Shown: in pieces, positions 21,131 through 42,437 of the stretch | Layout: each line of letters starts with the position of its first letter | How positions within the stretch are numbered: the first letter of the stretch is position 1 | Source: a virus | Lineage: Duplodnaviria > Heunggongvirae > Uroviricota > Caudoviricetes | IMG/VR virus record: IMGVR_UViG_2778261094_000010 | Span: 1 to 48,461 of that record | DNA length: 48,461 nucleotides | Reading direction: 5' to 3' (one strand) | Program-made: the position numbers and the translations under genes | The notes under the pieces: generated by a model | The model's input: the letters and a program-made list of their open reading frames with translations, nothing else | Database searches by the model: none | What the model was told of the DNA's origin: nothing

Positions 21131-21418
21131 GTTCTTTTTTCGCCCAATTATTTTCAAAAAAATTCCCGTGCACAAAAATTTGAGGAGGCGGTCGGTGTCC
21201 GGCAGGGACGGTTTCGTCCTGAAAACCACCCCCACCCCCTCTGACGGCCTCACCAGCGATTGCGAAAACATTCCATGACCTCGCGGTCACGGTCGGTTAA
21301 TCACTTCGCTGTGGTGCGTTTTGTGCGCCCTGTCCTGTTGGCTTTGTGCCCTGTCTCCTGTGTCTTCCATAAGTCACGCTGCCTTATCAGTCCACGTATC
21401 AGCCTGGTTTGCTCCTGT

Positions 21419-23368: not shown

Positions 23369-23369
23369 A

Positions 23370-23930
23370 TCACAACCCCGCCAGTTCAGCCCAGCGATGA
23401 CGATTATTTCCTGCCGGGCGTAATTCAGGGTACTGTGCAAACAACGAACGGTGGGCAATCTCCACGCCGGATTCGGGATAAGCAGGCATCGATGTTATCG
23501 TGATTTCACGGAGTTCTGCGGCGGTTACAGTACGCAGATACGGTTTTTGCGCGATATTCCACTCCTCGCATAATGCGCGAAAGCCAAAGCTCATTCCTGT
23601 AATATCGCCACGTTCCACCAGCGTAAGCACATCTTTTCCAAGCTGGGTATTTGGCGGTGTCAGTTCAAAACGTAGCCCGGTGTTATCCTCAGTCAGTACC
23701 AGTGAGCCGGATTTGGTACGCCCCAGCAGTTGGGTATAGTCATGCTCATACAGACAGCGCACATCATTACCCGCCGCCAGATAGTCAGCAAAAGCCCCCG
23801 GCGTGAACTGTTCGCGAAACTCGTCCCAGATAATTTCTGAAAGGCTGTTCCAGCGAACGGCATAACCCACCAGTTTTTTATCGCTGGCGGTCAGTTCAGA
23901 TGTACGGATTTCAAAATCGGTGTTTTTCAT
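23370..23930 (-). CDS. Satellite prohead protease (HK97 family)
   Basis: Translation from MKNTDFEIRTSELTASDKKLVGYAVRWN with conserved His/Ser regions (YEHD, GMSFGF); GGAG ribosome-binding site before the ATG at 23930. Confidence 0.85.
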   Translation of the reverse strand: MKNTDFEIRTSELTASDKKLVGYAVRWNSLSEIIWDEFREQFTPGAFADYLAAGNDVRCLYEHDYTQLLGRTKSGSLVLTEDNTGLRFELTPPNTQLGKDVLTLVERGDITGMSFGFRALCEEWNIAQKPYLRTVTAAELREITITSMPAYPESGVEIAHRSLFAQYPELRPAGNNRHRWAELAGL

Positions 23931-23979
23931 CGGTGTACTCCATAAAGCTGAAAAAGGAGGCCGAAGCCCCCTTTGCTCA

Positions 23980-25125: not shown

Positions 25126-25360
25126 GAAGGTTTTCTCGCATTGGTTAAGATTCAGGACGTGAAACCAACACGGGGGGAGCGCCGCCCGACACTCTCGGCA
25201 TCTCGCAGATCAACCCGGCATCGCGCAGGGGGTCAGGCGGCATTGTGGCGGCTCACGTCTGAGTGCCACACGCCAACATATACATAAAAATCAGTATGTA
25301 AACATCAGCCAGAATCACCGAACAACCTGGAACAACCACGAACAAATAATTTACAAAACC

Positions 25361-25396
25361 TGAAAAAAGGCCCGGAAAAAATCCGGGCCTTTATCG
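25361..25396 (-). terminator. Rho-independent terminator (bidirectional hairpin GGCCCGG-N7-CCGGGCC flanked by A and T runs)
   Basis: Perfect 7-bp stem with A6 upstream and T-rich downstream, immediately 3' of the minus-strand gene ending at 25399. Confidence 0.7.
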
Positions 25397-25398
25397 CT

Positions 25399-25647
25399 TT
25401 ATTGTTTCACTGGCTCCCGCATTCTGCGTCTTATTTTCCACAAATATTCGATCATCGCTTCCACCTGCTCACGGTTGGTTGCGAAAATTTCCCCGGTCAG
25501 TGAGCTACGCAGAAAATCATGATGATCCACAAAAAATAACGCATCGGAAGAAAGCAACCGACGATATTTTTTTGCTGTCGTGGTTTCCAGATCATCAAAA
25601 CCATGAAGCTTTTTATGTTGCTGAACTTCTTCAAATGTCACTGGCAT
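25399..25647 (-). CDS. Hypothetical satellite protein
   Basis: 82 aa ORF overlapping the upstream gene end and followed by a terminator; no recognisable motif. Confidence 0.4.
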   Translation of the reverse strand: MPVTFEEVQQHKKLHGFDDLETTTAKKYRRLLSSDALFFVDHHDFLRSSLTGEIFATNREQVEAMIEYLWKIRRRMREPVKQ

Positions 25648-26180
25648 GTATCCCCCTTTGCTGCCCGGCGCTGGCGCTTGTGCTTCTCATTCAGCACCAT
25701 CAGCCGTGTTTCTGCCTCCTGCTGTTCCTGTGGTGTCACTTCCCCACATGGCTGGCCTTTCAGGTCGTAACGTGCGCCACCAGCTATCAGGGCGCGGTAA
25801 TAGCGCGGAGACTGCGCATAGGATGCCAGCGTCGCACGTAATACCCCCGACCCGAATGCCAGCCCCCTGACGGCGATATCCTGCATCAGGTCGTCGAATA
25901 TCCCCACCTTAAGCGGCTTCGGTGCTTTATGGCTGAATAAGTCAGGCCACATCTCAGTGAGGCGGTTAACGCGTCGGCGGTTTTTGCGCTGCCTTTTGGT
26001 CATATGCTGCCACGGTGTCGCCCCTGCGGTCTTCTGTTTGCGGCTCTGCTGTGCGTTCTGATTATCGGGTATCACTTTATGCGCCGATGTGGTTTTATCC
26101 TGCTCTTGCGCCGCCTGCGTCGTTTTCTGCGGCGTGCCGTAAATGCCTTTCGGCTTCCGGTTAATGGTCAGCGTTGTCAT
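25638..26180 (-). CDS. ProQ/FinO-family RNA-binding protein (putative RNA chaperone)
   Basis: Basic N-terminus, then a FinO/ProQ-like core (PLKVGIFDDL...RYDLKG). Confidence 0.55.
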   Translation of the reverse strand: MTTLTINRKPKGIYGTPQKTTQAAQEQDKTTSAHKVIPDNQNAQQSRKQKTAGATPWQHMTKRQRKNRRRVNRLTEMWPDLFSHKAPKPLKVGIFDDLMQDIAVRGLAFGSGVLRATLASYAQSPRYYRALIAGGARYDLKGQPCGEVTPQEQQEAETRLMVLNEKHKRQRRAAKGDTCQ

Positions 26181-26216
26181 GCCTTCCCCCGTAATTACTC
26201 TGTTCGCTGTTGTGAA

Positions 26217-26642
26217 TTAAAACGGTATGTTATCCCCGTACGGGTCATCGTGCTGGCTTGTCTGTTGTTTTGCCCTGTTCAGTGCGTCAGTGGCCTGGCC
26301 CTGTTGACCTTTTTTGCCGCCCGGTCGCGCCGTTCGCGCACTGATTACGCTGTCTGCAATAACCTGCCAGCCCTGCCGCGTTTCCCCGTTCTGGCCTGTC
26401 CACTGGCTCACCTGCATGTTACCCGCCACGCTCACCAGTTCGCCTTTGTGGTGTTTTGCCAGTGCGTCGGCCTGTCTGCCAAACGCCAGGACAGATAACC
26501 ACATCGTCGCCGTTCCGTCATCTGCCTGGCTGCACGGCAGGGGAACCGCCATACTCGCCATCGCCATTTGTGTCCCTTTGCTGGTGGTCTTTAACTGCGG
26601 GTCAGCCACCAGCCGCCCGTAAGCCGCTATCTGTGCTGTCAT
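26217..26642 (-). CDS. ssb: Single-stranded DNA-binding protein (SSB)
   Basis: OB-fold-like N-terminal region, Gly/Gln-rich linker and an acidic C-terminal tail ending DDPYGDNIPF (compare the canonical SSB DDDIPF tail). Confidence 0.7.
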   Translation of the reverse strand: MTAQIAAYGRLVADPQLKTTSKGTQMAMASMAVPLPCSQADDGTATMWLSVLAFGRQADALAKHHKGELVSVAGNMQVSQWTGQNGETRQGWQVIADSVISARTARPGGKKGQQGQATDALNRAKQQTSQHDDPYGDNIPF

Positions 26643-26706
26643 GCTGTCTGTTCTCCGGTTTTAACGTTGATTGTTACGCTTGTTTACACCCTTACGGTGA
26701 AATTCT

Positions 26707-26829
26707 GCGGGTTATAATCGCACTTTTGCGGGTTATAACTGCCGTTTTGCGGGTTACGTGCGGGTTATTGATTTCCTTTTTATTCATACAGTTAATGCAC
26801 TTATACACAGGATAACCCGCATAACCCGC
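26707..26829. repeat. Iteron cluster A (putative satellite replication origin): 4 direct GCGGGTTA(T/C) repeats, AT-rich spacer, 2 inverted ATAACCCGC copies
   Basis: Direct copies at 26707..26715, 26728..26736, 26749..26757 and 26760..26768; inverted copies at 26812..26829; located just downstream of the replication protein gene. Confidence 0.7.
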
Positions 26830-26852
26830 AACTTTTTACATCACACAGGGGG

Positions 26853-28976
26853 TTAATCTTCTGCCTCAGGCTGGAACATCAGCACGTAAAAAACATGCTG
26901 CTTCCCCCCAATTTTGCTGAGCGCCTTTTTCTTGTAACGGCGGTCGTTCCCCTTTTCCAGCATCCCCGCCGCATCAAGCGCTCTTGCAAAATGCGACGGG
27001 TTAAATCCCTGTGCGATCTCACCTTCAAACACATGCGGGAACGTGTAAAAACGGAACTCGTCATCTTCGTTTCTGATACTCCCCTTTCTGTATCCGGCAA
27101 GTTCTTTAATCGGTAAATCACGCTCGTCGGTGTTGGGCCACGGAAGGTATCTGCTGAATCCGAACGACGCTAAAAAAGCCTCTGCCTGTTCAACCATCTG
27201 TTTAAATTCCCTGTTACCCGTGCCGAACTCCTTCACCCAGGCATTAAAATTATGCTGTATGGCATCGCGGCACGCCTGAACATCCCAGCCAGTAATATGA
27301 CCGGACAACACTAACGCCGCCTCAAGCATGGCAAATCGCTCCCCCACACGGTGAACCTGTTCGCCGTAGCTCTCCGGTATCAGGTTGCGCCACCGTTCAC
27401 GGCATGCCCTTACCGTGTCCTTTGCTTCCTGCTGGTGGTTTGCCAGCCATTTAACCCACTCTCGACCCGCCGCCCCGTGATTTTCTGTCCAGGCATCCTT
27501 TAACGCGTCTGCGTGCGCCTTTCCGGTGCTGTATTCGTGAAACTGCGTGGCTTTTTCCATCGGCACGTTAAGCAGGCGGACAAGCTGCCCCGCCTTGACT
27601 TTTATCCCCTCCGTTTTGAGGAATGTTTCAACGTCCATTTCTCCGGTGCTGATTGCCACCGTGCGCCAGTGTTTGATCTCCCTGTTGCCGCCGTCCTTCG
27701 CCCCCTGTAATTTCCCCGAACCGTTAAACAGCGTATAGGCTGACGTGGACACCTCCCGCGCGTTTCCGGCCTGACCTATTTCATCCAGGGGTAACAGCCC
27801 ATCATTATGTGCTTCGGCCTCGTTGGCGATACCTAACGCCGTGCCGTACCAGGTCAGCCGTTGTGCGTCCGGCTCTCCCCATAAACTGGATGCGATGTTC
27901 TGTGTGGTGGTTTTCCCTGCCGATGACTGTTCGAAAAGATGTACCCCGAAGCCGTCAGCCCCCACCAGCCCGATTAATGGTGCGGATAACGATACCGCCA
28001 CACCCAGCATCATGGACGGATTACCACCAGCCAGCCGCGCCACGGTATCGCGCCAACCCTCCGCCGTTCCTGCCACGGAATAGCCATTAACAGCAGCCGT
28101 TTTTCCGGTAAACAGGGCTGGCTTTTCGCAATCACCAATGACCGAACCGTCCGGCATGATGTACGCGCCAAAATGCCAGCCCGTTGTTGTGCTTAACTGC
28201 CATTCCTCATGGCTTCCGCTTAACTGCATCCAGTCAGCCAGGATAGCCCTGTATTTGCCGTTAGTTGTTACGTTCAGTCCGTGGTCTTTCAGCAGCCGCC
28301 AGCCGTCACGGTCGCCAATGCCACCGCACGGAACCGCCATTGTGATGACTTCATGGTTTGCTAATTTTTTCCAGCGCATCACGCGGTAATGCTCTTTACC
28401 GATTGTCCCCGTTCCCAGTAGTTCAAGCGGGGAACATAACCACGTCTCAGGCCGGATAATTTCGCCTGACTGCTTATCCACTTTTGGCGTTACCCAGAAA
28501 ACACCATCGGCGCGACTTTCAACGCGGGGCTTTAATTCATCATCGCCCTGGCTTTCTGTAATTTTTTTCTTTAAAGGCAACACCAGACTTTCCCCGCGCT
28601 CGTATTCGTCTTTGAGGCGAGGCAACTGGTCGGATAAATCCGCCGGGCTGGTGTCAGTTATACCCGCGTATTCGTATACGGTCTTCACGCCAGCCACAGC
28701 CAGCAACGTGACGATCTGTGTAAGGCTACGTTCAGTGATGTGCCCTGCGCGGTAAACACGCACACACTGACGGCTATCATCAATAATTTGATAACCGGTA
28801 ATATCTTTCAGGTGTTCATCTGACAGAACGACAGGTGGCACATTGTCGGCGGCAATATGCTTACCTGCCCATTCCTGCCACTCTTTCGCATGGCTCCACG
28901 CATCACTACCCGCAAAGATGATAACCTCCGTCATTTTGTCGGCTGGCTGGTGCTTTAAGTTTGGTGCGCGCTTCAT
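26853..28976 (-). CDS. Replication protein, DUF927-type primase/helicase (P4 alpha-like or PICI Rep-like) with Walker A motif
   Basis: 707 aa; Walker A-like SSAGKTT within a DUF927-like helicase core; adjacent iteron cluster; ATGA-type overlap with the upstream ORF. Confidence 0.75.
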   Translation of the reverse strand: MKRAPNLKHQPADKMTEVIIFAGSDAWSHAKEWQEWAGKHIAADNVPPVVLSDEHLKDITGYQIIDDSRQCVRVYRAGHITERSLTQIVTLLAVAGVKTVYEYAGITDTSPADLSDQLPRLKDEYERGESLVLPLKKKITESQGDDELKPRVESRADGVFWVTPKVDKQSGEIIRPETWLCSPLELLGTGTIGKEHYRVMRWKKLANHEVITMAVPCGGIGDRDGWRLLKDHGLNVTTNGKYRAILADWMQLSGSHEEWQLSTTTGWHFGAYIMPDGSVIGDCEKPALFTGKTAAVNGYSVAGTAEGWRDTVARLAGGNPSMMLGVAVSLSAPLIGLVGADGFGVHLFEQSSAGKTTTQNIASSLWGEPDAQRLTWYGTALGIANEAEAHNDGLLPLDEIGQAGNAREVSTSAYTLFNGSGKLQGAKDGGNREIKHWRTVAISTGEMDVETFLKTEGIKVKAGQLVRLLNVPMEKATQFHEYSTGKAHADALKDAWTENHGAAGREWVKWLANHQQEAKDTVRACRERWRNLIPESYGEQVHRVGERFAMLEAALVLSGHITGWDVQACRDAIQHNFNAWVKEFGTGNREFKQMVEQAEAFLASFGFSRYLPWPNTDERDLPIKELAGYRKGSIRNEDDEFRFYTFPHVFEGEIAQGFNPSHFARALDAAGMLEKGNDRRYKKKALSKIGGKQHVFYVLMFQPEAED

Positions 28977-29287
28977 TTTGCCTTTCCCCGTTCACGAATA
29001 ATTTCACGTACTGCCTTAATGCGTTCCATTCCTGTAACGCGCATGATTCTGTCGATGTCGCTTAATTCTGCTGGTGGTGCTTTGCTTACCAGGGGGAACT
29101 CCCTTTCAAAGCGCATATGCGACGACACGCAGGGATGCGCATAACCTTCGCGGATATAGGTCACGCGAAAATCATCGACGGTTTTAATCGTTATCGTGCT
29201 GCCGTATTTATCCCGGAAAATATCGCCGGGGCGGATTTCAGGCCGAGCGTGACCGCTGGCAGTAAAGCCAGAATTTTTCTTTTTCAT
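28973..29287 (-). CDS. Hypothetical satellite protein
   Basis: Start assigned to the ATG at 29287 (MKKKNSGF); translationally coupled to the replication gene. Confidence 0.4.
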   Translation of the reverse strand: MKKKNSGFTASGHARPEIRPGDIFRDKYGSTITIKTVDDFRVTYIREGYAHPCVSSHMRFEREFPLVSKAPPAELSDIDRIMRVTGMERIKAVREIIRERGKAK

Positions 29288-29294
29288 GTTTTTT

Positions 29295-29543
29295 TTACTC
29301 CAGAGGCAGCTTTTTAGCGGCGAGCTCAATATCAGATGTCAGAGAAACCTGTGTATTTGCCAGGTCTAACAACAAAGAAATAAGAATTTCTTCTCTGCTA
29401 TCGGATTTATCGGTGCTAAGGCTGTTCATCCACATATTGACGACTTCCCTGATTTTTTTCGCAGAGTGCAGGGCTTCAAATGCCAGGCCTTCAATATCAT
29501 GTTTATTTCGCATAATCGCCCCCGCCATTTTCACAATCAGCAA
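29295..29543 (-). CDS. Hypothetical satellite protein
   Basis: 82 aa ORF in the early operon; no recognisable motif. Confidence 0.35.
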   Translation of the reverse strand: MLIVKMAGAIMRNKHDIEGLAFEALHSAKKIREVVNMWMNSLSTDKSDSREEILISLLLDLANTQVSLTSDIELAAKKLPLE

Positions 29544-29748
29544 TCAGGATGGCTTTTGCCTCATTCAGCGCCATATCAGCACTAAATTGCATAAGAGCCA
29601 GTGAGTGAGGAACGAAAGCCCCGGTATATTCTGTTTCGCTGGTGGCGTGCTTATGCGCCTTGTCTGCGATAACAGAAATATCAATCAGCGCGTGCATCAG
29701 CGTTTTGATGGCTTCGGCGGCTGCGTCCGGTGTGGTTTTATTATGCAT
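29503..29748 (-). CDS. Hypothetical satellite protein
   Basis: 81 aa ORF in the early operon; no recognisable motif. Confidence 0.35.
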   Translation of the reverse strand: MHNKTTPDAAAEAIKTLMHALIDISVIADKAHKHATSETEYTGAFVPHSLALMQFSADMALNEAKAILIADCENGGGDYAK

Positions 29749-29944
29749 AGGTTTCCCCCTGGCGAATACGGGCGGCGAATACCATCACGCAGCCATCAGG
29801 AGATTGCTGACGCGCTTCCTGTTCGCTGGTGGCCTCAATGGTAATCACGCGCGGTTGTGCCGTGCTCAGGGCGATAAAACGCCAGATGTATTTATTCAGG
29901 TTGTACGAGTCCCGCCCTTGCGGGTGTCTGGTATAATTTCTCAT
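29741..29944 (-). CDS. Hypothetical small protein, first gene of the minus-strand early operon
   Basis: 67-codon ORF (MRNYTRHPQGRDSYNL...) with a GAGG ribosome-binding site, transcribed divergently from the operator region. The listed 349-aa ORF is treated as a read-through artefact. Confidence 0.4.
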   Translation of the reverse strand: MRNYTRHPQGRDSYNLNKYIWRFIALSTAQPRVITIEATSEQEARQQSPDGCVMVFAARIRQGETYA

Positions 29945-30041
29945 AGCTACCTCGATACGCTTTCTATCGTTGGTGGTTAGAAGCCCGGTTAGTGTTAGCG
30001 CACTGCCGGGTTTCGTCGTTTCTGCACCTTGCATCAGTAAG

Positions 30042-30093
30042 GTGTTGAACACCAATTTAAGCCCTGGTGTTAAACACGTCAAGTGTTGAACAC
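30042..30093. promoter_or_regulatory. Operator-like triple palindrome GTGTT(G/A)AACAC in a divergent promoter region
   Basis: Near-palindromic 11-mers at 30042..30052, 30067..30077 and 30083..30093, between the minus-strand early operon and the plus-strand small regulator gene. Confidence 0.6.
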
Positions 30094-30143
30094 TTATTTT
30101 TTTTCCTGCATACTGCATTTGTTTTTTGTAAGGGGTACACAAC

Positions 30144-30323
30144 ATGGCAACAAAAGCAGTAAACGCAAAATCACAAACAGTTGCGGCAAGGGTTCCGCAT
30201 GAAGTTATGAACAATGTTGAGGCGGTAAAAATGCCTGGTGAAAGTACAGGGCAGTTTGTAACAGCAGCATTAAAGCGAGAAGTTGAATACCGCCAGCGTC
30301 GCAAGGCCAAAGAGCAGGAATAA
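30144..30323 (+). CDS. Small putative DNA-binding regulator (59 aa)
   Basis: ATG at 30144 preceded by an AAGGGG ribosome-binding site, immediately downstream of the operator palindromes; small basic protein with a KREVEYRQRRKAKEQE tail. Confidence 0.5.
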   Translation: MATKAVNAKSQTVAARVPHEVMNNVEAVKMPGESTGQFVTAALKREVEYRQRRKAKEQE

Positions 30324-30380
30324 CCATCACCAGCGCCGTGGTGTAAGGTATTACGGCGCATTGCTATGCAGGACAACACA

Positions 30381-30554
30381 ATGACCGATAAAGAATTGAC
30401 CAAAACATTATCACCGACACGGAAAAGACGGCGCAGAAAGATAGAGCATGAATCAGAAAGATTCGCACCTTGTTCGTTTGCTCTTGAGAAATTCCTTAAA
30501 GAGCGCAGGAAAAAACTCTCGTTGCAAACCTTGGAACGAACCAAATCTGACTGA
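30381..30554 (+). CDS. Hypothetical small basic protein
   Basis: 57-codon ORF (MTDKELTKTLSPTRKRRRRK...) with an AGGA ribosome-binding site, followed by tandem terminators. Confidence 0.3.
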   Translation: MTDKELTKTLSPTRKRRRRKIEHESERFAPCSFALEKFLKERRKKLSLQTLERTKSD

Positions 30555-30620
30555 TCACATTGCCCACCAGCCGCAAATGTGGCATTGTTGGTGATGCTTT
30601 TGTTTTCCCTTGTTCCCACT

Positions 30621-30650
30621 GGCGACCCTTTTGCGGTCGCCTTTGTTTTG
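30621..30650 (+). terminator. Rho-independent terminator (GGCGACC-CTTTTGC-GGTCGCC followed by TTTGTTTTG)
   Basis: Perfect 7-bp stem followed by a T tract, downstream of the plus-strand small ORFs. Confidence 0.7.
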
Positions 30651-30745
30651 CCTGTTATCCTGCAACTATGGTCATTTCGACCACGGTTGATATAATCCCC
30701 CCGCACAGATTCATTTTTTGCGCAGTAGGTTAATTGTTCGCAAGG

Positions 30746-30780
30746 GCGCTCCGGTAACGGGGCGCTTTTTGTTTTTACCC
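30746..30780 (+). terminator. Rho-independent terminator (8-bp stem with GTAA tetraloop followed by TTTTTGTTTTT)
   Basis: GCGCTCCG-GTAA-CGGGGCGC hairpin (one G-U pair) followed by a T-rich run; second of two tandem terminators. Confidence 0.65.
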
Positions 30781-30934
30781 ACCAGCACAATAAAAATCTT
30801 CATTTTCCATTTTTGTAAAATTTCATGCTTTCCGGACGACTGGTAATATGTCATTTTTTAGCAGAAGATTTTGCCTTGCTGGTGGGTAGCTTCCCGGTCA
30901 ACACGATGTACCGTATAATCAACACCGCGTGTGG

Positions 30935-31531
30935 TTACTGAATACGCTCACCAAAGTAAAACTCAGGCTGGTATTCACGTATCAGCCTTTTTTCTTCTTC
31001 CTCCAGTTCACGCTTTTTGCGCTTACATGCCTGTAGCTCCCTCCCCTTCTCGCTGGCACTTATCTGGTATTGCTCTTTGCGGCGGGAAAAATCCTGTAAT
31101 GCTCCCCACGGGATACCATAAGCCCCCGTTTTTCTGATACCCGGTATCACATTTCTGAATACCCAATTACTGAAACGATGGGCGAACGTGCCAGGATTAA
31201 CAGCTTTGCGACTTCTGGCGATCAACTTGTAAAAACCTGATTCTGATACAACATTCCAACTTCTGGCACCACCACGCTTACCTGAATGACCCTCGGTTAA
31301 AGCTAGGGTCATTACCTCATCGCTATCCAGAACTGAAACAGCATCGGTAACGTTGCTAATTTCCAGCGCCGCACACACATCAGCGCCAACAAACCACGGA
31401 TCGCCGTTCAGATACACCACGCGAACGTTCACACTATCAAAGCGCAGAACGACCAGATCACGAATATCACAGAATTTTTTCACATGACGTGCGTCACCCT
31501 TGCCCGTCGCGGCAATATTTTTATTCATCAC
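30935..31531 (-). CDS. Bro-N domain protein (antirepressor-like)
   Basis: Bro-N signature (FDSVNVRVVYLNGDPWFVGADVCAALEI...SGFYKLIARSRK) with a Lys/Glu-rich coiled C-terminus. Confidence 0.7.
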   Translation of the reverse strand: MMNKNIAATGKGDARHVKKFCDIRDLVVLRFDSVNVRVVYLNGDPWFVGADVCAALEISNVTDAVSVLDSDEVMTLALTEGHSGKRGGARSWNVVSESGFYKLIARSRKAVNPGTFAHRFSNWVFRNVIPGIRKTGAYGIPWGALQDFSRRKEQYQISASEKGRELQACKRKKRELEEEEKRLIREYQPEFYFGERIQ

Positions 31532-31585
31532 TTTCTACCTCACATACAAAAAACCCCGCATTGCGTGGTGCGGGGTTGTCGGTAA

Positions 31586-31864
31586 TTACTTATTGGCGTT
31601 TTTGTATGGGCTGTTTACTTCCTTTACTCCTGGCGGATGCATAACCCACCAGAGCACATCAGAGAGCAACCAGGAAACAGACACTTTCCCTAAATGAGCA
31701 CGAGCAGGAAATGCTCCCTCCTGTTCAAGTACCCAACGTCTGCTTCTTGAAAGCCCGGTACGATTGGCACACTCATGTTCGCGTATACGGCGATCATACG
31801 GTTCGCCATGTTCTTTCAGAATCTGAATGCGTTCTTCGGGTGTAGGATAAATAAATTTTTGCAT
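31586..31864 (-). CDS. AlpA-like helix-turn-helix regulator (second copy)
   Basis: Translation from MQKFIYPTPEERIQILKEHGE with an AlpA-type C-terminal helix-turn-helix (TGLSRSRRWVLEQEGAFPARAHLGKVSVSWLLSDVLWW). Confidence 0.5.
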   Translation of the reverse strand: MQKFIYPTPEERIQILKEHGEPYDRRIREHECANRTGLSRSRRWVLEQEGAFPARAHLGKVSVSWLLSDVLWWVMHPPGVKEVNSPYKNANK

Positions 31865-31927
31865 AAAAATATCACCTATAAAAAAACCCGCCAAAAGACG
31901 GGTTGATTATATCTCATTTAATTTAGT

Positions 31928-32161
31928 TCAGGGTTTCCATTCACCCTTTACCCATTCCAGCACCTCAGATAAGCGCCAGACTTTTGTTTGTGGGCCAATA
32001 CATATTTTCCGTGGAAATTTTCCTTCCTTTTCAAGTAATGCTCTGTGTCTCCTGCCAAGAGCTGTTAACCATGCACATTCATCTTCCTTAATCATCCTGT
32101 CGATTGTTTTATCATTTTCAAGTTCTTCACGCGTAACTATTTCAATCATTACCGTCACCAC
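31928..32161 (-). CDS. alpA: AlpA-family transcriptional regulator / excisionase-like protein
   Basis: 77 aa with AlpA-like helix-turn-helix (LTALGRRHRALLEKEGKFPRKICIGPQTKVWRLSEVLEWV); immediately downstream of and overlapping the integrase gene. Confidence 0.75.
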   Translation of the reverse strand: MVTVMIEIVTREELENDKTIDRMIKEDECAWLTALGRRHRALLEKEGKFPRKICIGPQTKVWRLSEVLEWVKGEWKP

Positions 32162-33350
32162 TAATTAGCTTATTCAGATAGTCGTACCACCAGTTCATAG
32201 CTTCTTTTTTTCTGTCCATATACTGACTTCTGTTATAAACCCCGGCAACACCGCCTAATGTGTGCCCAAGCAACTGTTCAACCACATTATGTTCAAAACC
32301 ATGATCACTTAGCTTTGTGGCAAACACTCTTCGCATATCATGCGCCGTCCATTTTTCCGAGTGTTTCATCCTTTTCCATGTCTTACCGATAGTTACGCTT
32401 GCCGTACACTGACGCATATCAAACCCAATCACATTTTCTTTGTTACCTGTTATTTTTTTTAACGTAACTAACCAGTTAAACATGCCATCAGGAATCGGTC
32501 TGATTATTTCCCTGCCATTTTTGCTATGATCAGCGGGAACGCGCCATAATTTCTTATCAAAATCCCACTCTACCCAGGACGACAGTAATACTTCTGACAG
32601 TCGACAACCAAAAACTACCAGGAAACGTAAAATAATTCGGTTTTCATATGATAATTCGTGATTGTCATAATCAGTATTAATACTTCGCCATAAATCTCTG
32701 ATTTCATCATCTGTTAAAACCCTGCTTCTTCGCGCAGACTTTTTTCCCACATCACAGACCTCAAGATCATCAATTTCATGACTAATCGCGTATTTTCTTA
32801 CCCTACAAAATTTAAGCGCCTGTTTTGATATACGCAACAAAGCTCCGGCCTGTACAGGTGCTACTTTTTTTATTTTGTCAAAACACTTGATCCACATAGA
32901 TATAGAGCAATCACTAAGTGGTACATGACCAATCACCGGATAAATATGTTTACCAAAGCACTGCCTGATATGTTCTGCTCCCCTACGCTTATCCATTGCA
33001 TAATTATCAAGCCAGTATTCAAGTGCCTCACGAACGGTAACAGGTTGCAAGGTGGCTTCCCGTTCAATTTTTATCTGAATCCGTGGATCTCTGCCCTCCG
33101 CAAGCCAGGTTCGACACTGATCGCGCATCTCTCTCGCTGATTTGAGACTCAGATCAGGATATTTTCCAAGTGTCAGCCAGATGGGCGCGGTTCCCCTTCC
33201 CGCCAGTCTGTAAAAGAAAACAAAACTAACACATCCGTATTTACTGACCCGTACCGAAAGCCCGTTACCATCAGCGATGGTTTCCTGCCTCTCACTCCTG
33301 CGCCCAAGCAGGGAACGAAGTTTTTTATCGCTCAGTTTGTTTAGCGCCAT
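32142..33350 (-). CDS. int: Tyrosine integrase (P4-type site-specific recombinase)
   Basis: C-terminal catalytic motifs (HDMRRVFAT, LLGH, GVYNRSQY); start assigned to the ATG at 33350 (MALNKLSDKKL); lies about 170 bp from the right junction core. Confidence 0.9.
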   Translation of the reverse strand: MALNKLSDKKLRSLLGRRSERQETIADGNGLSVRVSKYGCVSFVFFYRLAGRGTAPIWLTLGKYPDLSLKSAREMRDQCRTWLAEGRDPRIQIKIEREATLQPVTVREALEYWLDNYAMDKRRGAEHIRQCFGKHIYPVIGHVPLSDCSISMWIKCFDKIKKVAPVQAGALLRISKQALKFCRVRKYAISHEIDDLEVCDVGKKSARRSRVLTDDEIRDLWRSINTDYDNHELSYENRIILRFLVVFGCRLSEVLLSSWVEWDFDKKLWRVPADHSKNGREIIRPIPDGMFNWLVTLKKITGNKENVIGFDMRQCTASVTIGKTWKRMKHSEKWTAHDMRRVFATKLSDHGFEHNVVEQLLGHTLGGVAGVYNRSQYMDRKKEAMNWWYDYLNKLISGDGND

Positions 33351-33517
33351 GTGATTTATAACCCGTTTTTGCAATACACAGTGCAATACACAAATGATGA
33401 AAACAGCCAGAACCTTCCAGAAAAAACAAAAACGACGAACAAGAAAAAATCTTTTTCTTTCATTTGGTTACTAAAAAAATCAGGACAGGTCGCACTGTTG
33501 TTACGGCGTGATGTTAC

Positions 33518-33537
33518 TTTCTTGGTAAAAAAATTCA
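33518..33537. repeat. Right attachment junction (attR-like): exact 7-bp core TTGGTAA at 33522..33528 plus imperfect flanking match
   Basis: Direct repeat of the 18605..18611 core; boundary between satellite DNA (integrase side) and the helper terL N-terminal fragment. Confidence 0.65.
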
Positions 33538-34549
33538 CCCGCGCAGAGACCTGTTCTTTCGCTTTTTTCGCCAGGCGACGCAGATCATCCCAGCGTTTAC
33601 AGATGCCCAGGCCGGGATTCGCTTTCTGCCAGACCGTTTCATCAAACGGATCATCTCCCTCATCGAGGGTGTAAATAATCGCAAAGTAGGAGTCGTCTTT
33701 TACCGCGCCCTCCACGTCGCTGTTATAGCCTCGCAATACCTTGATGGCGTAATCGCGTTGCTCGTAACAAATCCCTTCCTTGTTAAAGCCAGCCGTGGTG
33801 ATACCAAATAACAGGGACTGCAGACGGGCACCGGTTGCCGTTTCCAGAACGTCCCACACGTCGCGGGTTTTATGTGCATGCAGCTCATCAATAATGGCGC
33901 AGTGGATGTTCAGACCATCCAGGTTGTTTGCATCCGAGGAAAGCGGTTCAAATTTTGATGCGCTCTGCTCCTGGTAAATCGCCAGCTTGTTGAAATCAAA
34001 CAACCGCCCGAGTGTCGATCGGGCTTTTCTGACCATATTTTTGGCGTCTTCAAACACGATTCTGGCCTGGTCACGCGTGGTTGCGGCTGAATACACCTCA
34101 GCCCCGCCTTCACCATCTGCCCCCGTCATATACAGACCGATACCTGATGACAGGGTTGATTTTGCGTTTTTACGGGCGACTTCGTTGTACGCTGTCCGGA
34201 AACGGCGCACCATCACCGGGCGTCCGCTGCCATCGCTGCGCATGACAACTTCCCCGGTCTCTTCATTCACCAGCGGAATGACAAAACCAAAAATATTAAT
34301 GAGGATAAAAACATGCCAGTCCATCAGTTCAATGGGCTGACCTGCCAGCGCCCCTTTTACATGGGGCACAAATTTGTAGAAATTCAGGATGTGCTGCGCA
34401 CGGGGTTCACTGAAATAAATCCCCCGCTCTTCGCCGTACTTCAGATCATCAAGAAAACGCTGGCAGGCCAGACGGACAAATTCACCAGCGACAATTTCTC
34501 CTGCAACAACACGTTCGGCGTAGCGGATCCCGTCAGCCACTTTTGCCAT
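33522..34549 (-). pseudogene. terL: Helper prophage terminase large subunit, N-terminal ATPase-domain fragment (5' part of a terL split by the satellite)
   Basis: Translation through DETVWQKANPGLGI...ARVNFFTKK parallels satellite TerL (DDPAMWIKANPNID...EMLTKRFNIW), then runs into unrelated low-complexity sequence (VTSRRNNSATCPDFF...) after the junction at about 33522; the ORF's true stop is at 33356. Confidence 0.8.
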
Positions 34550-36301: not shown

Positions 36302-36685
36302 TTATCGCTTCAGCTGAAAGTGAGGTCCGTCTTTCAGCGTTTTCCAGTCCCCGCCCCATTCGATAGCGATCCCCAGCTCTGCGGCAGCCTGCTTAAATGC
36401 CTGTGCGATTTTCTCGTACAGAGGCCACTCCCATGACACCTGACTGCCAATGTAGGCCACAACATCCACCGCATCACCGGTCAGGTGGCGGCTGTTCATG
36501 GTCTGGCTTTTCCCTTCCGCAACCAGCTGTTTCTGGCGATACTTACTGCGCAGGCCTTCCGTAATACCGAAATCAACCTCCGTCAGCTCCAGCGCACGGC
36601 GAACTACAGCAACCAGCTGTGGTTTGACACCCTCCAGATTTTTTTCACTGCGACGGCTGAATCTGAATTTACCCGGCATATTCAC
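36302..36685 (-). CDS. Endolysin, peptidase M15-type (D-Ala-D-Ala carboxypeptidase-like)
   Basis: 127 aa with M15-family character (SRHLTGDAVDV, WGGDW); follows two membrane-protein genes with ATGA-type coupling. Confidence 0.8.
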   Translation of the reverse strand: MNMPGKFRFSRRSEKNLEGVKPQLVAVVRRALELTEVDFGITEGLRSKYRQKQLVAEGKSQTMNSRHLTGDAVDVVAYIGSQVSWEWPLYEKIAQAFKQAAAELGIAIEWGGDWKTLKDGPHFQLKR

Positions 36686-37339: not shown

Positions 37340-37426
37340 ACTTCCTCCTGAAAATAAAAAAGGGCCACCAGCGACCCGTAAAAAAACACCCCGTCAAAGG
37401 CATCCGCAGATGCCTTTTGTGTGATG

Positions 37427-37579
37427 TTATTCAGATTTACGCAGTAAAGGCCGGAGCACGACCAGCGCCATCGCCACCAGCACACCATCTGCCAGCACCG
37501 ACATCAGTCGTCCGGTGAAATCAACCACCACTACCAGAAACAACAGGATGACAGCCAGCACAAGGCGCGCACTTTTCAC
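37427..37579 (-). CDS. Small hydrophobic protein, apparent GTG start overlapping the TerB-like gene stop
   Basis: Unlisted 50-codon ORF (VKSARLVLAVILLFLVVVVDFTGRLMSVL...) between the TerB-like gene and the holin; GTGA overlap with the upstream stop. Confidence 0.3.
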   Translation of the reverse strand: MKSARLVLAVILLFLVVVVDFTGRLMSVLADGVLVAMALVVLRPLLRKSE

Positions 37580-38001
37580 AGGTACTGCTCCAGCGGCAAC
37601 TGCAGCGCCTGCGCAATTTTCTTCAGTTGCGCTTCTTCTTCCTGACCGATACCGTCCTGGTCAGCGATATCCAGACACAGGCACAGCACATTAACTGCAT
37701 CATCAGTACCGGCAACATCAGCCAGCTGACGAAGAGCTTCGGCATTGGCAGAACGCGGCGACGCTTCATAACGGGCGCGGATATTTGCACTCATTTGTGC
37801 AATCTCACCGGAGAACGGCGCAAAGACAGGAAGTGCTGCAATGGTTTTTTCCAGTACCGCGATTTCTTTCGCGTCACAGGTGCCGTCAGCGTATGCAATG
37901 GAGTACGCGCCCCAGACGGTCGCCTCCACTGCGTCACGGTTCTCCATCTTCTTCACTTCGGTAATGGCCTTGCGGGTTTTCTTTTTGAAAATACCAAACA
38001 T
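37576..38001 (-). CDS. TerB-like (tellurite resistance TerB domain) protein
   Basis: 141 aa with TerB-like helical pattern (AYADGTCDAKEIAVLEKTIA ... LCLDIADQDGIGQEEEAQLKKIA); AAAGGAAAAG ribosome-binding site; lies between the tRNA cluster and the lysis genes. Confidence 0.65.
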   Translation of the reverse strand: MFGIFKKKTRKAITEVKKMENRDAVEATVWGAYSIAYADGTCDAKEIAVLEKTIAALPVFAPFSGEIAQMSANIRARYEASPRSANAEALRQLADVAGTDDAVNVLCLCLDIADQDGIGQEEEAQLKKIAQALQLPLEQYL

Positions 38002-38176
38002 CGTGACTTTTCCTTTTAGTGGGTGAGCCTGCGCCCGGGGGTGACCAGCCCACAGAGAAAGTCACACTGACCATCCCGTAAGCTCACCCCTGAAAGGCTC
38101 TGTGGTTTTTTGATGTGCGCCGGGCGTGGCGCGGATATGAAAAAGGCCCGCCGAAGCGAGCCTGGAAAAATAAGCG

Positions 38177-38253
38177 TGGCGCGTTGTACTGGATTCGAAC
38201 CAGTGACCGATTGCTTAGAAGGCAATTGCTCTGTCCGGCTGAGCTAACAACGC
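38177..38253 (-). tRNA. tRNA-Arg (anticodon UCU)
   Basis: Manual cloverleaf: acceptor GCGTTGT/ACAACGC, anticodon stem ATTGC/GCAAT, loop CUUCUAA, T-loop GGTTCGAATCC, 3' CCA. Confidence 0.85.
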
Positions 38254-38266
38254 AGGGTACAGATAA

Positions 38267-38343
38267 TGGACCGCCATCGAGGACTCGAACCCCGCGCAAC
38301 CAGCTCCGAAGGCTGGCGCTCTATCCTGATGAGCTAATGGCGG
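38267..38343 (-). tRNA. tRNA-Arg (anticodon UCG as parsed)
   Basis: Manual cloverleaf: acceptor CCGCCAT/ATGGCGG, anticodon stem CCAGC/GCTGG, loop CUUCGGA, T-loop GGTTCGAGTCC, 3' CCA. Confidence 0.8.
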
Positions 38344-38350
38344 TATGTGA

Positions 38351-38426
38351 TGGTGGCCCTTGCTGGATTTGAACCAGCGACCTGGCGATTATGAGTCGCT
38401 CGCTCTCACCACTGAGCTAAAGGGCC
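38351..38426 (-). tRNA. tRNA with CAU anticodon (tRNA-Ile2 lysidine type or tRNA-Met)
   Basis: Manual cloverleaf: acceptor GGCCCTT/AAGGGCC, anticodon loop CUCAUAA, T-loop GGTTCAAATCC, 3' CCA; first of three tandem tRNAs in an ileZ-argN-argO-like arrangement. Confidence 0.8.
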
Positions 38427-38475: not shown

Positions 38476-39525
38476 TCAAACGATTAAATCCTGAACTTCC
38501 CTGACTGTCTGTTCAAAACGTCCGGTCTCCAGCTCAACACCAATCGCACAACGCCCCAGTGCCATCGCCGCTTTTACCGTTGAACCTGAACCCATAAAAA
38601 AATCTGCAACCAGGTCTCCCGGACGACTGCTCGCGTTGATTATCTGCTGCAGCATTTCTGCCGGTTTTTCGCACGGATGTTTCCCTGGATAGTACTGCAC
38701 CGGTTTATGCGTCCAGACATCGGTGTACGGAACCTGCGCCGTCACACCGAAATACCGCCGCAAATTTTTATATTCACTCAGCAGTTCCGTATACTGCCGG
38801 TTCAGCTCACTGTATGTGCTGACCAGCTGGTGGTGTGGCTTTTCCAGTTCCCCGCGCTGATGTTTTTCTGCCGCAACACGCGCAAACAACGCCTGCAATT
38901 TATTGTAATCACCCTCGTTCGGTAACTGCCACTGACTGGCACCAAACCAGTGCGAAGCCATGTTTTTCTTTCCGGTGGCTTCCGCTATCTGTTTTGACGT
39001 TATTCCCAGTGATTTACGCGCATCACGAAAGTAAGAAATCAGCGGGGCCATGACGTGCTGTTTTAGCTCGCGCCCCTGCTCCACATAGCCATCATCTTTC
39101 GGGCGATACGGTCCCTGATAATGTTCTGCAAACAGAATGCGCTCTGTTGCCGGAAAATACGCCCGCAGACTTTCCTTATTGCACCCGTTCCAGCGTCCGG
39201 ACGGCTTCGCCCAGATAATGTGGTTCAGCACATTAAAGCGCTCACGCATCATGATTTCGGTGTCAGATGCCAGGCGATGACCACAGAACAGGTAAAGACT
39301 TCCGGCAGGCTTCAGTACCCGCCAGAACTGCGCCAGACACTGGTCCAGCCATTTCAGGTAATCATCGTCGCCCTCCCACTGGTTATCCCAGCCCTCGGGC
39401 TTCACTTTAAAGTATGGCGGGTCTGTGACTATCAGATCGACAGAATTTTCCGGTAAGGTCTGGATAAATTCCAGGCAATCAGCGTTGATTAACTCACAAC
39501 TGGATATTTTTACAGTATTAATCAT
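38476..39525 (-). CDS. DNA methyltransferase (N6-adenine/N4-cytosine type, DPPY motif, beta-class order)
   Basis: Catalytic motif LIVTDPPYF near the N-terminus and SAM-binding FFMGSGST near the C-terminus. Confidence 0.85.
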   Translation of the reverse strand: MINTVKISSCELINADCLEFIQTLPENSVDLIVTDPPYFKVKPEGWDNQWEGDDDYLKWLDQCLAQFWRVLKPAGSLYLFCGHRLASDTEIMMRERFNVLNHIIWAKPSGRWNGCNKESLRAYFPATERILFAEHYQGPYRPKDDGYVEQGRELKQHVMAPLISYFRDARKSLGITSKQIAEATGKKNMASHWFGASQWQLPNEGDYNKLQALFARVAAEKHQRGELEKPHHQLVSTYSELNRQYTELLSEYKNLRRYFGVTAQVPYTDVWTHKPVQYYPGKHPCEKPAEMLQQIINASSRPGDLVADFFMGSGSTVKAAMALGRCAIGVELETGRFEQTVREVQDLIV

Positions 39526-40092: not shown

Positions 40093-40836
40093 CTAATCTG
40101 ACGTCACACGCACCATTATACTTACTAAAGAAAAGTCATCATCAGGTCCGGCTCTCTCTATACGACGCAAAATGCCATTAGAAAACTTCTGACTATTACT
40201 CATCGTATTTGATGTAAATCTGGGGCGTTTTTCCCAAACGTTATGAACCCCATCAGACATGATACACAGATGATATACCCCGTTAATACTAGGTAAATCT
40301 TTCCATGTGATAAAATCACAGTCGTATTCCATATCAACATTTGAGGCTATAGCCGTCGTTAAGATATTTTTGCCCGGTTTATCCTTCAAATCTCTGGGTT
40401 TAAAAATATTCTGATCAATTAGCATCTGATGCCTGGTATCGTCCTTCGTCAATTGGTATGCTTTCTTCTCTCCAATGCAATACAAACGACAATCACCAAT
40501 ATGACCAATAATAATTCCGCTATCACAAACATAACAAAACGTAAGTGTAGTAGCAGCTTTATCGAACTCATCATTAACATCAGCTAACGACATAACCTTT
40601 CGCTTAACTTCATCAAATACATCCGGAACTGTGTCAAAAGATAAGCTTGTCAATGCTGAAAGTTCAGCAATTGCCATTGATGAAGCCTGACTGGCACCAG
40701 TGTATGAACCTACACCATCAGCTACGGCAAATAAGATGCCATCCCCTACAATTTTGGGAGGAAGCAATGAATCTTCGTTGACCCTACCTGGTTCTTTTGG
40801 ATACGAGAATGATGAAGTCGCTATCAGCTGAATCAT
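40093..40836 (-). CDS. PP2C-family Ser/Thr protein phosphatase
   Basis: PP2C metal-binding motifs (NED, FAVADGVGS, GDCR, MSDGV); ATG overlaps the kinase stop (ATGA); AT-rich codon usage. Confidence 0.85.
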   Translation of the reverse strand: MIQLIATSSFSYPKEPGRVNEDSLLPPKIVGDGILFAVADGVGSYTGASQASSMAIAELSALTSLSFDTVPDVFDEVKRKVMSLADVNDEFDKAATTLTFCYVCDSGIIIGHIGDCRLYCIGEKKAYQLTKDDTRHQMLIDQNIFKPRDLKDKPGKNILTTAIASNVDMEYDCDFITWKDLPSINGVYHLCIMSDGVHNVWEKRPRFTSNTMSNSQKFSNGILRRIERAGPDDDFSLVSIMVRVTSD

Positions 40837-41597
40837 GACTCACTCCTTAAAAAAGAATGCACAAAATCAAACGCCACATCATCTATTGTCTGATATCTAT
40901 CATCTTTATCCATCCTGGTACACTTCGCTATGATAGGCTTTATTTTTTTATCATCTAAATTTAAGTCCTCAATTAACCGCCCCACCGCATAAACATCAGT
41001 CTTAACTGAATACTCGGCATTATATAAAATCTCGGGAGCCATATATCTTGTACTTCCCATACGGGTACCGATCTCGGTCAATTTAGTGGTATCCCCTTCG
41101 GGATTTGTATCTTTTACCAGACCAAAATCAGACACCTTGTATGTTCCGTCGCTAAATCGCAAGACATTAAATGGTTTTATATCTCTGTGTAAATAGCCTT
41201 TCGCATGGATGTGAGCTACACCATCTAATACCATTTTCACTATTGAAATTTTTTGATCTGTTGTAAGAAGGTTGTTCGTTATTTCGTGCTCAAGATCACA
41301 TTCTGCTTTATCCATAATGAACCATGGATTCTCGGCAAACAAATCGCACAAATAAATAGGAACAATATTGCTATGTACGCAATGTGATTGATACACGACC
41401 TCCCTTTTAAAACGCCTTCTAAACTGCTCTATTTGCGCCAAAAGCTCTGGTTTTTCGGGGGCTAAAACCTTTCTAGCATAATCCCCACATTCACCCTTGT
41501 TGAGGTTGTAAACCTTAACGTGTTCAACAAAGCCAAATGCACCCCTTCCAATCAACTGAATTCGTTTTATAAAGTAATTACCGTGCTGTTCTTCCAT
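40833..41597 (-). CDS. Hanks-type Ser/Thr protein kinase (kinase domain only)
   Basis: Complete kinase subdomain set: glycine loop GRGAFGFV, catalytic Lys in YARK, HRDIKPFNV, DFG, TRYMAPE, DVYAVG. Start assigned to the ATG at 41597 (MEEQHGNYF). Confidence 0.85.
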   Translation of the reverse strand: MEEQHGNYFIKRIQLIGRGAFGFVEHVKVYNLNKGECGDYARKVLAPEKPELLAQIEQFRRRFKREVVYQSHCVHSNIVPIYLCDLFAENPWFIMDKAECDLEHEITNNLLTTDQKISIVKMVLDGVAHIHAKGYLHRDIKPFNVLRFSDGTYKVSDFGLVKDTNPEGDTTKLTEIGTRMGSTRYMAPEILYNAEYSVKTDVYAVGRLIEDLNLDDKKIKPIIAKCTRMDKDDRYQTIDDVAFDFVHSFLRSES

Positions 41598-41669
41598 TAA
41601 GCTCACCGACCTAAATTGTAAGAATATCCATATCTTACAACTACAGATAAAAAGGTCCACAGAGTTAAG

Positions 41670-41695
41670 CAAAAAACCCGCATTTAAGCGGGTTT
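41670..41695 (-). terminator. Rho-independent terminator downstream of the Q-like gene (possible tR'-like site)
   Basis: Hairpin ACCCGC-ATTTAA-GCGGGT followed on the minus strand by a T6 run, about 50 bp after the Q-like stop. Confidence 0.6.
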
Positions 41696-41741: not shown

Positions 41742-42437
41742 TTAATTGACTTTTGCAATATCTCGTCGTGAAAAGGTCGCTTTTTGTTGCGATCTCATTT
41801 TCACGGTGCAAATCAAGGATTCTGTATCGAGTTTCTTAAAAATGTCGCACATCTCACGCCAGTAGTTCGCATAATTATGGCTCCAGTTGTCAGGCTTAAC
41901 TCCACACAGTCTGGCAAGTTCCTGTCGCTGGTAGACGTCACGCCCAGTAATCCTCCCCCTGACATCCTGCGCCGCCAGCCAGATTAATTTCTTCAGACGC
42001 TCAAGCGTTTTCCCTGTAATTTTTCTGGTGCCAAAATGCACCTGAAACTTATCCCACGCCCATTTCGCAATGACCACCTGATAATCCCAACTCGGATTTT
42101 CACTGTATACCCACAGCACCCACGCCTTCTGATGCTCTTCAAGAGACAGAACGGCGCGTCGCCATGATGATGTCGAAAACTCAACCGGACTGACCAGGGC
42201 AATTGATGAACCTTTCGCCAGCGATTGCTTTCCCGGGATCGGTGGATTATCCAGCGTTACCATTTTTCCAGTGACCTTATCGCGGTACCGGATTTTTTTA
42301 CGTCTGTAACGCCCTGTATCAAACATGGCATTCTCCTGCCAGGCTTCAAGCTGACCTTTTGTTGCCCCACTCAAATCGGCGGTGGCGATAATGAGCTGCT
42401 CACGAACAAACTGTAAATACTGGTTATTCATGCGCAC
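41742..42437 (-). CDS. Putative late-gene antiterminator Q-like protein
   Basis: 231 aa basic protein directly after rusA and directly before an intrinsic terminator and the late-region morons; assignment rests mainly on conserved lambdoid gene order. Confidence 0.45.
   Translation of the reverse strand: MRMNNQYLQFVREQLIIATADLSGATKGQLEAWQENAMFDTGRYRRKKIRYRDKVTGKMVTLDNPPIPGKQSLAKGSSIALVSPVEFSTSSWRRAVLSLEEHQKAWVLWVYSENPSWDYQVVIAKWAWDKFQVHFGTRKITGKTLERLKKLIWLAAQDVRGRITGRDVYQRQELARLCGVKPDNWSHNYANYWREMCDIFKKLDTESLICTVKMRSQQKATFSRRDIAKVN

Follow-up and report, generated by a model that had tools for sequence, protein, structure and literature searches.

What does an Escherichia coli prophage carry in the late-region slot that holds Shiga toxin genes in its relatives, and what could such cargo do there? 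The question is raised by the IMG/VR virus record IMGVR_UViG_2778261094_000010 (Caudoviricetes), the 48,461 nucleotides of which are referred to here as the window. An earlier note on this DNA had placed in that slot a 141-aa TerB-like protein followed by a 50-codon hydrophobic open reading frame (ORF). Sequence comparison identifies the locus as tciA-tciB, a cassette that received its name in phage P1, and the names given by Pfam, PHROG and PGAP agree on this. The cassette is preceded by a conserved, structured leader RNA, and in phage after phage its TerB gene is coupled to a small membrane protein gene. The best overall explanation that we can offer, tentatively and at a probability of roughly 0.4, is that tciAB encodes a membrane-tethered TerB module that would be made in the lytic phase and would guard the inner membrane of the infected cell.

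Identity of the gene pair

The plus-strand letters TCAC at positions 37576-37579 read GTGA on the minus strand, where the GTG start of tciB overlaps the TGA stop of tciA, and a Shine-Dalgarno (SD) motif, GGAG, lies 8 nt upstream of that GTG. TciA scores above the cut-off of the Pfam family TerB (PF05099; 32.4 bits against a cut-off of 24.4, E 1.3e-7, with residues 11-57 only being aligned) and matches PHROG 632, "tellurite resistance", at 2.8e-64. TciB belongs to Pfam DUF3927 (54.2 bits, cut-off 25, 1.4e-14) and matches PHROG 1470, "TciB-like", at 3.3e-23. The PF05099 assignment was found precomputed for all TciA homologues that were found, and PGAP labels the identical locus of E. coli FDAARGOS_1077 as "tellurite resistance TerB family protein" and "DUF3927 family protein". 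An NCBIfam scan gave nothing useful, only a sub-threshold DjlA match, and neither protein matched any PADLOC family at E <= 0.1. As a gene pair the locus is ordinary, being a known and annotated family, and the same overlap is repeated in hundreds of public loci, far beyond chance. The earlier note had observed the pair correctly, the GTGA overlap included, but did not recognise it as the P1 cassette, to whose TciA the window protein is 85.8% identical over all 141 residues (tblastn), nor as a pair that PGAP had annotated at an identical locus.

A profile search had been suggested in that note as a check on the TerB assignment, and it came out positive beyond the Pfam match. A profile built from 10 diverse TciA homologues matched 2JXU, the canonical Klebsiella TerB, at E 9.9e-17, with profile positions 14-137 aligned to residues 20-144; the single TciA sequence found no TerB among the PDB sequences with phmmer, and the 10-sequence profile was needed for this. 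The AlphaFold2 (AF2) model of TciA is closest to the TerB-like structures 2h5n and 2ou3 and has their all-alpha fold. The body of the protein is acidic, with six helices and an isoelectric point of 4.8, and it is preceded by a conserved basic-hydrophobic N-terminus, MFGIFKKKTRK. Twin A-D-G-x5-E motifs (D39/G40/E46 and D116/G117/E122) are invariant or nearly so across 10 to 32 sequences and are regarded as a putative metal site. On its profile match and predicted fold, TciA is a true stand-alone, full-length TerB homologue that stands outside any ter operon.

The membrane partner

TciB is markedly hydrophobic (grand average of hydropathy 1.50), with hydrophobic segments at residues 6-19 and 25-43 and invariant or nearly invariant residues in the alignment at R5, D20-F21, S27, D31-G32 and P44. 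AF2 predicts one long helix over residues 2-48, without a hairpin, at a predicted local distance difference test score of 91. No holin-family match was obtained for TciB in Pfam or PHROG, and its candidacy as a fragment or relative of TerC was rejected (hhalign probability 0.05).

A TciB-like ORF lies no more than 150 nt from 207 of the 219 full-length TciA loci, a set that includes duplicates of one another. The comparison was extended to divergent phages, namely P1, P7, the N4-like Pollock, a jumbo Erwinia phage, Pseudomonas phiK7B1 and Pantoea LIET2. TciA proteins that are only 30-46% identical are followed there by a hydrophobic partner ORF of 50-60 aa with the same motif, whose start is offset by -7 to +4 nt; the partners in phiK7B1 and LIET2 score above the DUF3927 cut-off and the Erwinia partner falls just below it. 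This recurrence marks TciB as a real, conserved and translationally coupled hydrophobic protein, as the earlier note had supposed.

Other phage TerB genes have other partners. A different conserved ORF of 65-73 aa overlaps the stop of the TerB gene by 4-8 nt in Pseudomonas and Paracoccus genomes and in Pseudomonas phage AF; it has a single N-terminal transmembrane (TM) helix and the motif C-x-YYGYQTDRETRYAAFVGCMV..W.PR.ELR, and the one member scanned belonged to no Pfam family. The lytic Vibrio phage vB_VpaP-MS02 (378-1926) has no TciB, and a TerC-family gene lies directly upstream of its TerB homologue. Given the divergent DUF3927 partners, the alternative ORF with one TM helix and the Vibrio TerC, it appears that phage TerB genes are nearly always paired with an inner-membrane partner. 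The coupling of TerB to a small membrane ORF across such different phages (P1/P7, N4-like, jumbo, Pseudomonas and Pantoea) is a modest new point. Separately, one IMG/VR contig (4423-5424) holds a rearranged copy of the cassette in which only the first 16 codons of tciB are left, joined in frame to an ORF of 333 aa.

A conserved leader RNA upstream of tciA

For the leader that accompanies the cassette a long and imperfect hairpin is predicted (fold z-score -3.6), in which the SD sequence of tciA would be paired (Table 1). When 27 distinct leaders were examined with RNAalifold and by pair counts, a structure of 29 pairs was obtained, and across the leaders these positions are 97.4% paired. Double changes occur at 4 pairs, one of which stands at 13:13 between UA and AU; the covariation score lies above those of all 500 shuffles, and slid registers are less than 50% paired. 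Rfam holds no family for this leader: only the three tRNAs reach its thresholds, and positions 38000-38170 gave nothing better than E 0.25, with scores that fall well short of the gathering cut-offs.

At least 119 IMG/VR contigs contain one 24-mer of the leader without a mismatch. Among the 112 usable cases, window-type TciA lies downstream in 91, a third TciA allele of about 45% identity in 17 and an unrelated ORF in 1, and the leader is kept in lambdoid contexts whatever lies further upstream. Since the same leader precedes TciA alleles that are only about 45% identical, it is more conserved than the coding sequence that it serves. A consensus scan found no sigma-70-like site between the upstream terminator and tciA. 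We infer that the leader gates the translation of tciA, and cleavage of the late transcript by RNase III may be the means. A conserved leader that occludes the SD sequence may represent an undescribed regulatory RNA, and its conserved structure is a modest new point.

The Shiga toxin slot and a remnant in phiP27

The earlier note had placed the cargo in the position of toxin genes, and comparison with sequenced phages bears this out. The block of methylase and tRNA genes is 89% identical to that of Stx2a phages, where stxA and stxB come right after argO. The closest sequenced phage is phiP27, with 90% identity on both flanks, holins and endolysin included, and it carries stxA2e and stxB2e in the slot that tciAB occupies in the window. 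The flanks are thus shared, whereas the stx cargo of phiP27 and the Stx2a phages is unrelated to tciAB.

The homology between the window and phiP27 begins at the endolysin and ends at position 37521, having covered 95 nt of tciB with a 1-nt indel; in the leader of tciA it starts again, at 38128. In phiP27 the 3' end of tciB is therefore still present as a remnant without annotation (about 4120-4216), between stxB2e and the holin gene. Given that phiP27 keeps the last ~95 nt of tciB, its ancestor had tciAB, and the stx2e operon replaced tciA together with the 5' part of tciB. The remnant is a modest new point and offers a concrete picture of a Shiga toxin operon entering the late region by replacing an older accessory cassette. 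The plus-strand hypothetical gene L27 of phiP27 (4203-4400) starts at the stx-proximal edge of the remnant, with which it overlaps by about 14 nt, and is probably spurious. The LT-IIb toxin was also considered as an occupant of the same slot and rejected, as the eltIIb genes of SerU-LTIIb sit after the endolysin.

Expression timing and dispensability

The cassette lies inside a Q-dependent late operon in the window, in Fostie and in pPE4. In P1 and P7 tciABC or the pair is located downstream of C1-operated ban promoters, in the N4-like Pollock tciA stands among early/middle genes, and in jumbo Erwinia phages the pair adjoins tRNA genes where the genome starts; lysis genes are near it in none of these. 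Strictly virulent phages, among them N4-like and jumbo ones, make up many of the carriers. Transcription of tciA during P1vir infection has been reported. All of these contexts would point to expression in the lytic phase rather than to lysogenic conversion. When the locus is viewed as a possible moron, terminator-like hairpins are found on both sides and the consensus scan gives no sigma-70-like site in the leader.

In P1, tciA, tciB and tciC were reported to be non-essential by CRISPR interference (CRISPRi), knockdown being without effect on plaque formation. The tciABC genes also form one of eight hypervariable regions of P1-like phage-plasmids and have been lost from about half of one P1-like subgroup. 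The CRISPRi result, this hypervariability and the replacement by stx2e in phiP27 together indicate that the cassette is non-essential and accessory.

Comparison with known systems and distribution

The P1 record (GenBank AF234172) lists tciA, then tciB and tciC, all named "by homology". As in the window, the DUF3927 ORF of P1 overlaps or abuts the stop of tciA, tRNA genes and a DNA methyltransferase gene are nearby and expression is apparently lytic-phase. There are, however, several differences. No TciC-like ORF is present in the window, where the gap from tciB to the holin gene measures only 87 nt and is taken up by hairpins; the window pair sits in a Q-dependent late region upstream of holins and not at the ban operon; the structured leader of about 105 nt is absent from P1; and the two TciB proteins are only about 46% identical.

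The second system to be compared is the ter cluster. Klebsiella TerB (2JXU, from terZABCDE) shares with TciA the same domain at near full length, its size, the all-helical fold and the paired acidic motifs, and according to the literature it also has a partner in the inner membrane, TerC. Host TerB is described as amphitropic in published work, which reports a core complex between it and this membrane protein. In contrast, tciA is phage-borne, terZ, A, C, D and E are absent beside it, and its partner is a 50-aa peptide unrelated to TerC. No TerC or TerD was found within the late region examined (36.2-42.7 kb), where the neighbours are tRNA genes, the methylase and holins.

TerB-type domains have also been described in the defence systems Bunzi (BnzA), Shango (SngA) and Dionysus (DinB), for which "membrane surveillance" has been proposed, and in Dionysus the TerB-like protein is paired with a TM pore-former, DinC. 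The combination of a TerB-type domain with membrane components is common to these systems and to tciAB. The latter, however, has no PADLOC match, helicase/ATPase or large pore-former and is carried and expressed by phages, virulent ones included, whereas Bunzi, Shango and Dionysus are found in host defence islands.

The window-type pair was found in 180 of 5426 complete E. coli genomes (~3%), where it is almost always chromosomal, and P1/P7-type sequences in 297 genomes, where they are almost all plasmid-borne. The pair is also present in Citrobacter, Enterobacter, Erwinia, Pantoea, Rosenbergiella, Buttiauxella, Serratia, Pectobacterium and some Pseudomonas. The P1-type and P7-type TciA alleles stand at about 33% identity, each having been measured against the window TciA, and the P1 and P7 TciB proteins are nearly identical from residue ~16 on. 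A P7 query returned 184 E. coli records, nearly all of them P1-like plasmids, at 90-95%, and the matches listed cover only the last 134 nt of tciB. Divergent TciA proteins followed by a near-identical 3' part of tciB in P1 and P7 indicate a recombination breakpoint inside tciB.

Proposed function and its alternatives

Given these observations, we propose the following model. The tciAB genes would have no promoter of their own and would be expressed only in lytic growth, from the late transcript antiterminated by Q. The leader hairpin would hide the ribosome-binding site and so gate translation until a trigger such as RNase III processing occurs. TciB would then insert in the inner membrane and TciA would act at that membrane, which it may reach through its basic-hydrophobic N-terminus, through TciB or through both, as host TerB works with TerC. 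That cations may be bound is suggested by the paired acidic ADG..E motifs in TciA and, in TciB, by two invariant intramembrane Asp residues. As an accessory module, the pair would stabilise or monitor the infected cell's inner membrane and thereby let the phage programme run to its end, and the insults countered could be membrane depolarisation by pore-forming colicins, superinfecting phage or membrane-acting abortive-infection effectors. The cassette itself would be neither a toxin nor a tellurite-resistance determinant. A looser role in membrane stress, such as the earlier note had put forward, is plausible.

Several points weigh against this model. The searchable literature on tciA, tciB and DUF3927 holds annotation-level mentions only and no experiment on TciA or TciB, and for this reason the functional part of the model is extrapolated from the phenotypes of the ter operon and from the defence systems that contain TerB. 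Natural TciA-TciB fusions were considered as evidence of an interaction and rejected, as the apparent cases (P0060, P0107, P0264 and P0291) have 1-3 members, come from a single contig each and look like frameshift or misassembly products. The AF2 model leaves the topology of TciB ambiguous, in that one long helix is predicted over two hydrophobic segments. The putative metal binding of TciA is read from its motifs alone. The alignment used to score the leader structure is also the one that had yielded this structure, and the promoter scan was a crude consensus search, so that a weak or non-sigma-70 promoter, or expression in the lysogen, is possible.

The biochemical role of TerB domains, in the ter operon as in several of the new defence systems, is still described as unsolved in the literature. 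The tciAB cassette, as a non-essential phage-borne module of two genes, a TerB protein and a membrane peptide, is far simpler to dissect than those systems, and a membrane-guarding TerB machine, if the model is true, would provide the simplest genetic handle on the TerB domains of the ter operon, Bunzi, Shango and Dionysus. The model can also be stated more broadly: cassette and leader would be the regulated, minimal two-protein TerB machine of many phage lineages, keeping the inner membrane energised during lytic growth against membrane-acting immunity, colicins and superinfection, with the leader as a new class of cis-regulatory RNA. We consider this wider claim unlikely.

The alternative that survives best is a defence pair of lysogenic conversion, expressed in the lysogen and blocking other phages or colicins. 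It draws on the reported inhibition of phages and resistance to colicins conferred by the ter operon, on the TerB domains of Bunzi, Shango and Dionysus and on the TM pore-former of the last. The location also fits, the cassette being placed in a moron-type hot spot with moron-like bracketing by terminators, in a region that is hypervariable in P1-like elements and beside a kinase that matches the PD-T4-6 and mad6 defence models. We nevertheless regard a defence pair as doubtful, given that both proteins lack a PADLOC match, that the consensus scan gave no promoter-like site between the upstream terminator and tciA, that the P1 genes belong to the repressor-controlled ban operon and that the pair is also frequent in N4-like, jumbo and other phages that are strictly virulent and thus form no lysogen in need of protection. 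Such a pair could exclude superinfecting phages at the inner membrane, or it could be a minimal abortive infection system modelled on Bunzi and Dionysus, with a TerB sensor and TciB as pore-forming effector.

A module that handles cations would be a minimal functional analogue of TerC-TerB, in which oligomers of TciB and the acidic TerB protein move or buffer Mn, Zn, Ca or Mg. The twin acidic motifs of TciA, the invariant D20 and D31 of TciB and the TerC gene upstream of TerB in the lytic Vibrio phage are in keeping with this, as are the reported effect of terC on Zn and Mn resistance and the induction of ter genes by Zn and Mn. However, no similarity between TciB and TerC was detected, transport by a peptide of 50 aa would be out of the ordinary and a metal role would follow from the motifs only; we therefore hold such a module to be distinctly unlikely.

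The swapping of at least three strongly differing TciA alleles (33-45% identity) behind the same leader or before the same 3' part of tciB would fit an arms race, and it could be speculated that the phage protein is a decoy that titrates or mimics host TerB and so disables the phage inhibition by the ter operon, or Shango, Bunzi or Dionysus. The host ter operon and TerB-domain systems restrict phages, and the protein appears to belong to the lytic programme and is found in many virulent phages. It is not evident why a decoy should require a membrane partner that is obligatory and conserved from host to host, and we judge a decoy quite improbable.

The earlier note had inferred a role in lysis timing from the adjacency to the holin gene, its single ground for it. 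In this role the pair would act on the neighbouring holins as an antiholin-like or holin-modulating factor. It does lie directly upstream of holin genes on the same late transcript in this prophage, pPE4 and Fostie, and TciB resembles holins and antiholins in being a small membrane protein. The linkage is, however, lambdoid-only: the pair is away from the lysis genes in P1/P7, Pollock, Erwinia jumbo phages, phiK7B1 and LIET2. It also occurs with quite different holin types, phiP27 functions as a phage with the same holins despite the loss of the pair, and the P1 knockdown was without plaque phenotype, all of which make this role very improbable.

The historical name and homology, with a size and hydrophobicity of TciB like those of small hydrophobic toxins, are all that speaks for a tellurite or colicin resistance determinant, a cell-division inhibitor or a toxin-antitoxin pair with TciB as membrane toxin, and these are scarcely credible, since terC, terD and terE, the companions of terB in tellurite clusters (cf. 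the terBCDEF construct), are absent here, as the authors of a phage with terB alone likewise argued from the missing companion ter genes, and since an addiction module makes no sense in virulent phages.

Layout of the late region and the host prophage

The element that carries the pair is a phiP27-like E. coli prophage in which tciAB lies between tRNA and holin genes (Table 1). Positions 33.5-46.0 kb of the window are 99.9% identical to a prophage of E. coli FDAARGOS_1077, and 36.2-39.6 kb are 100% identical. The gene order given in the earlier note (Q, methyltransferase, tRNAs, cargo, holin, endolysin) holds as stated, except that three additional genes lie between Q and the methylase.

Table 1. 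Features of the tciAB locus and of the surrounding late region (positions in the window)
Feature	Position	Strand	Remarks
Antiterminator Q	41742..42437	minus	Phage_antiter_Q 5e-84; presumed start of the late transcript, through tciAB and holins
Terminator-like hairpin	41674-41695		after Q
Ser/Thr kinase	40833-41672	minus	
PP2C phosphatase	40093-40836	minus	
Small winged helix-turn-helix ORF			between PP2C phosphatase and N6 methylase
N6/N4 DNA methyltransferase	38476..39525	minus	upstream of tRNAs
tRNA(CAT), ileZ-like	38351-38426	minus	PGAP: tRNA-Ile
tRNA-Arg(TCG)	38267-38343	minus	
tRNA-Arg(TCT)	38177-38253	minus	
Intrinsic-terminator-like hairpin and T-run	38139..38163	minus	between tRNA-Arg(TCT) and tciA leader; 8 pairs, 6 GC, then TTTTTC
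Small GC hairpin GCGCCACGCCCGGCGC	38117..38132	minus	5' edge of the sequence travelling with the cassette
Conserved leader	37999-38105	minus	~105 nt; travels with the cassette
Leader hairpin upstream of tciA	38012..38097	minus	5' CCUUU pairs with AAAGG of the tciA SD
SD region of tciA	38007-38017		
tciA	37576..38001	minus	141-aa cytoplasmic TerB-family protein
tciB	37427..37579	minus	50-aa hydrophobic DUF3927 protein, GTG start
GC hairpin AAAGGCATCtgcgGATGCCTTT	37396..37417	minus	just past the tciB stop; kept in phiP27
Intrinsic-terminator-like hairpin and T-run	37351..37377	minus	gap from tciB to holin; conserved in phiP27 and pPE4
Holin PF16931	36947-37339	minus	
3-TM holin PF05449	36682-37011	minus	ORF as listed; the PGAP gene in the identical genome is shorter, 276 nt
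M15 endolysin	36302-36685	minus	

The kinase matches the PADLOC models mad6 (3e-40) and PD-T4-6 (1.5e-34). It forms with the PP2C phosphatase an overlapping pair in the same late operon as the TerB protein, an arrangement that recalls the TerY-phosphorylation triad without a TerY/vWA gene. In five unrelated phage lineages (P1, P7, the Erwinia jumbo phage, phiK7B1 and the window prophage) tRNA genes lie no more than a few hundred bases from the TerB gene, which in P1, LIET2 and lambdoid prophages also has a DNA methyltransferase gene near it.

The window differs from the FDAARGOS_1077 prophage, to which it is otherwise 99.5-99.9% identical, by a 14.9-kb insertion (18607-33521) that splits the large-terminase gene terL of the prophage, the N-terminal remnant of which is the ORF at 33356-34549. 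The insert encodes a tyrosine integrase (32142-33386), Bro-N, DUF927 primase-like and ProQ/FinO proteins, an HK97-type capsid, a portal, TerS and TerL, and the scan of ten of its ORFs revealed no tail genes. A 7-bp repeat, TTGGTAA, stands at its junctions, where nothing longer was found. The insert looks like a capsid-forming satellite of the type of phage-inducible chromosomal islands, placed inside the large-terminase gene of a potential helper.

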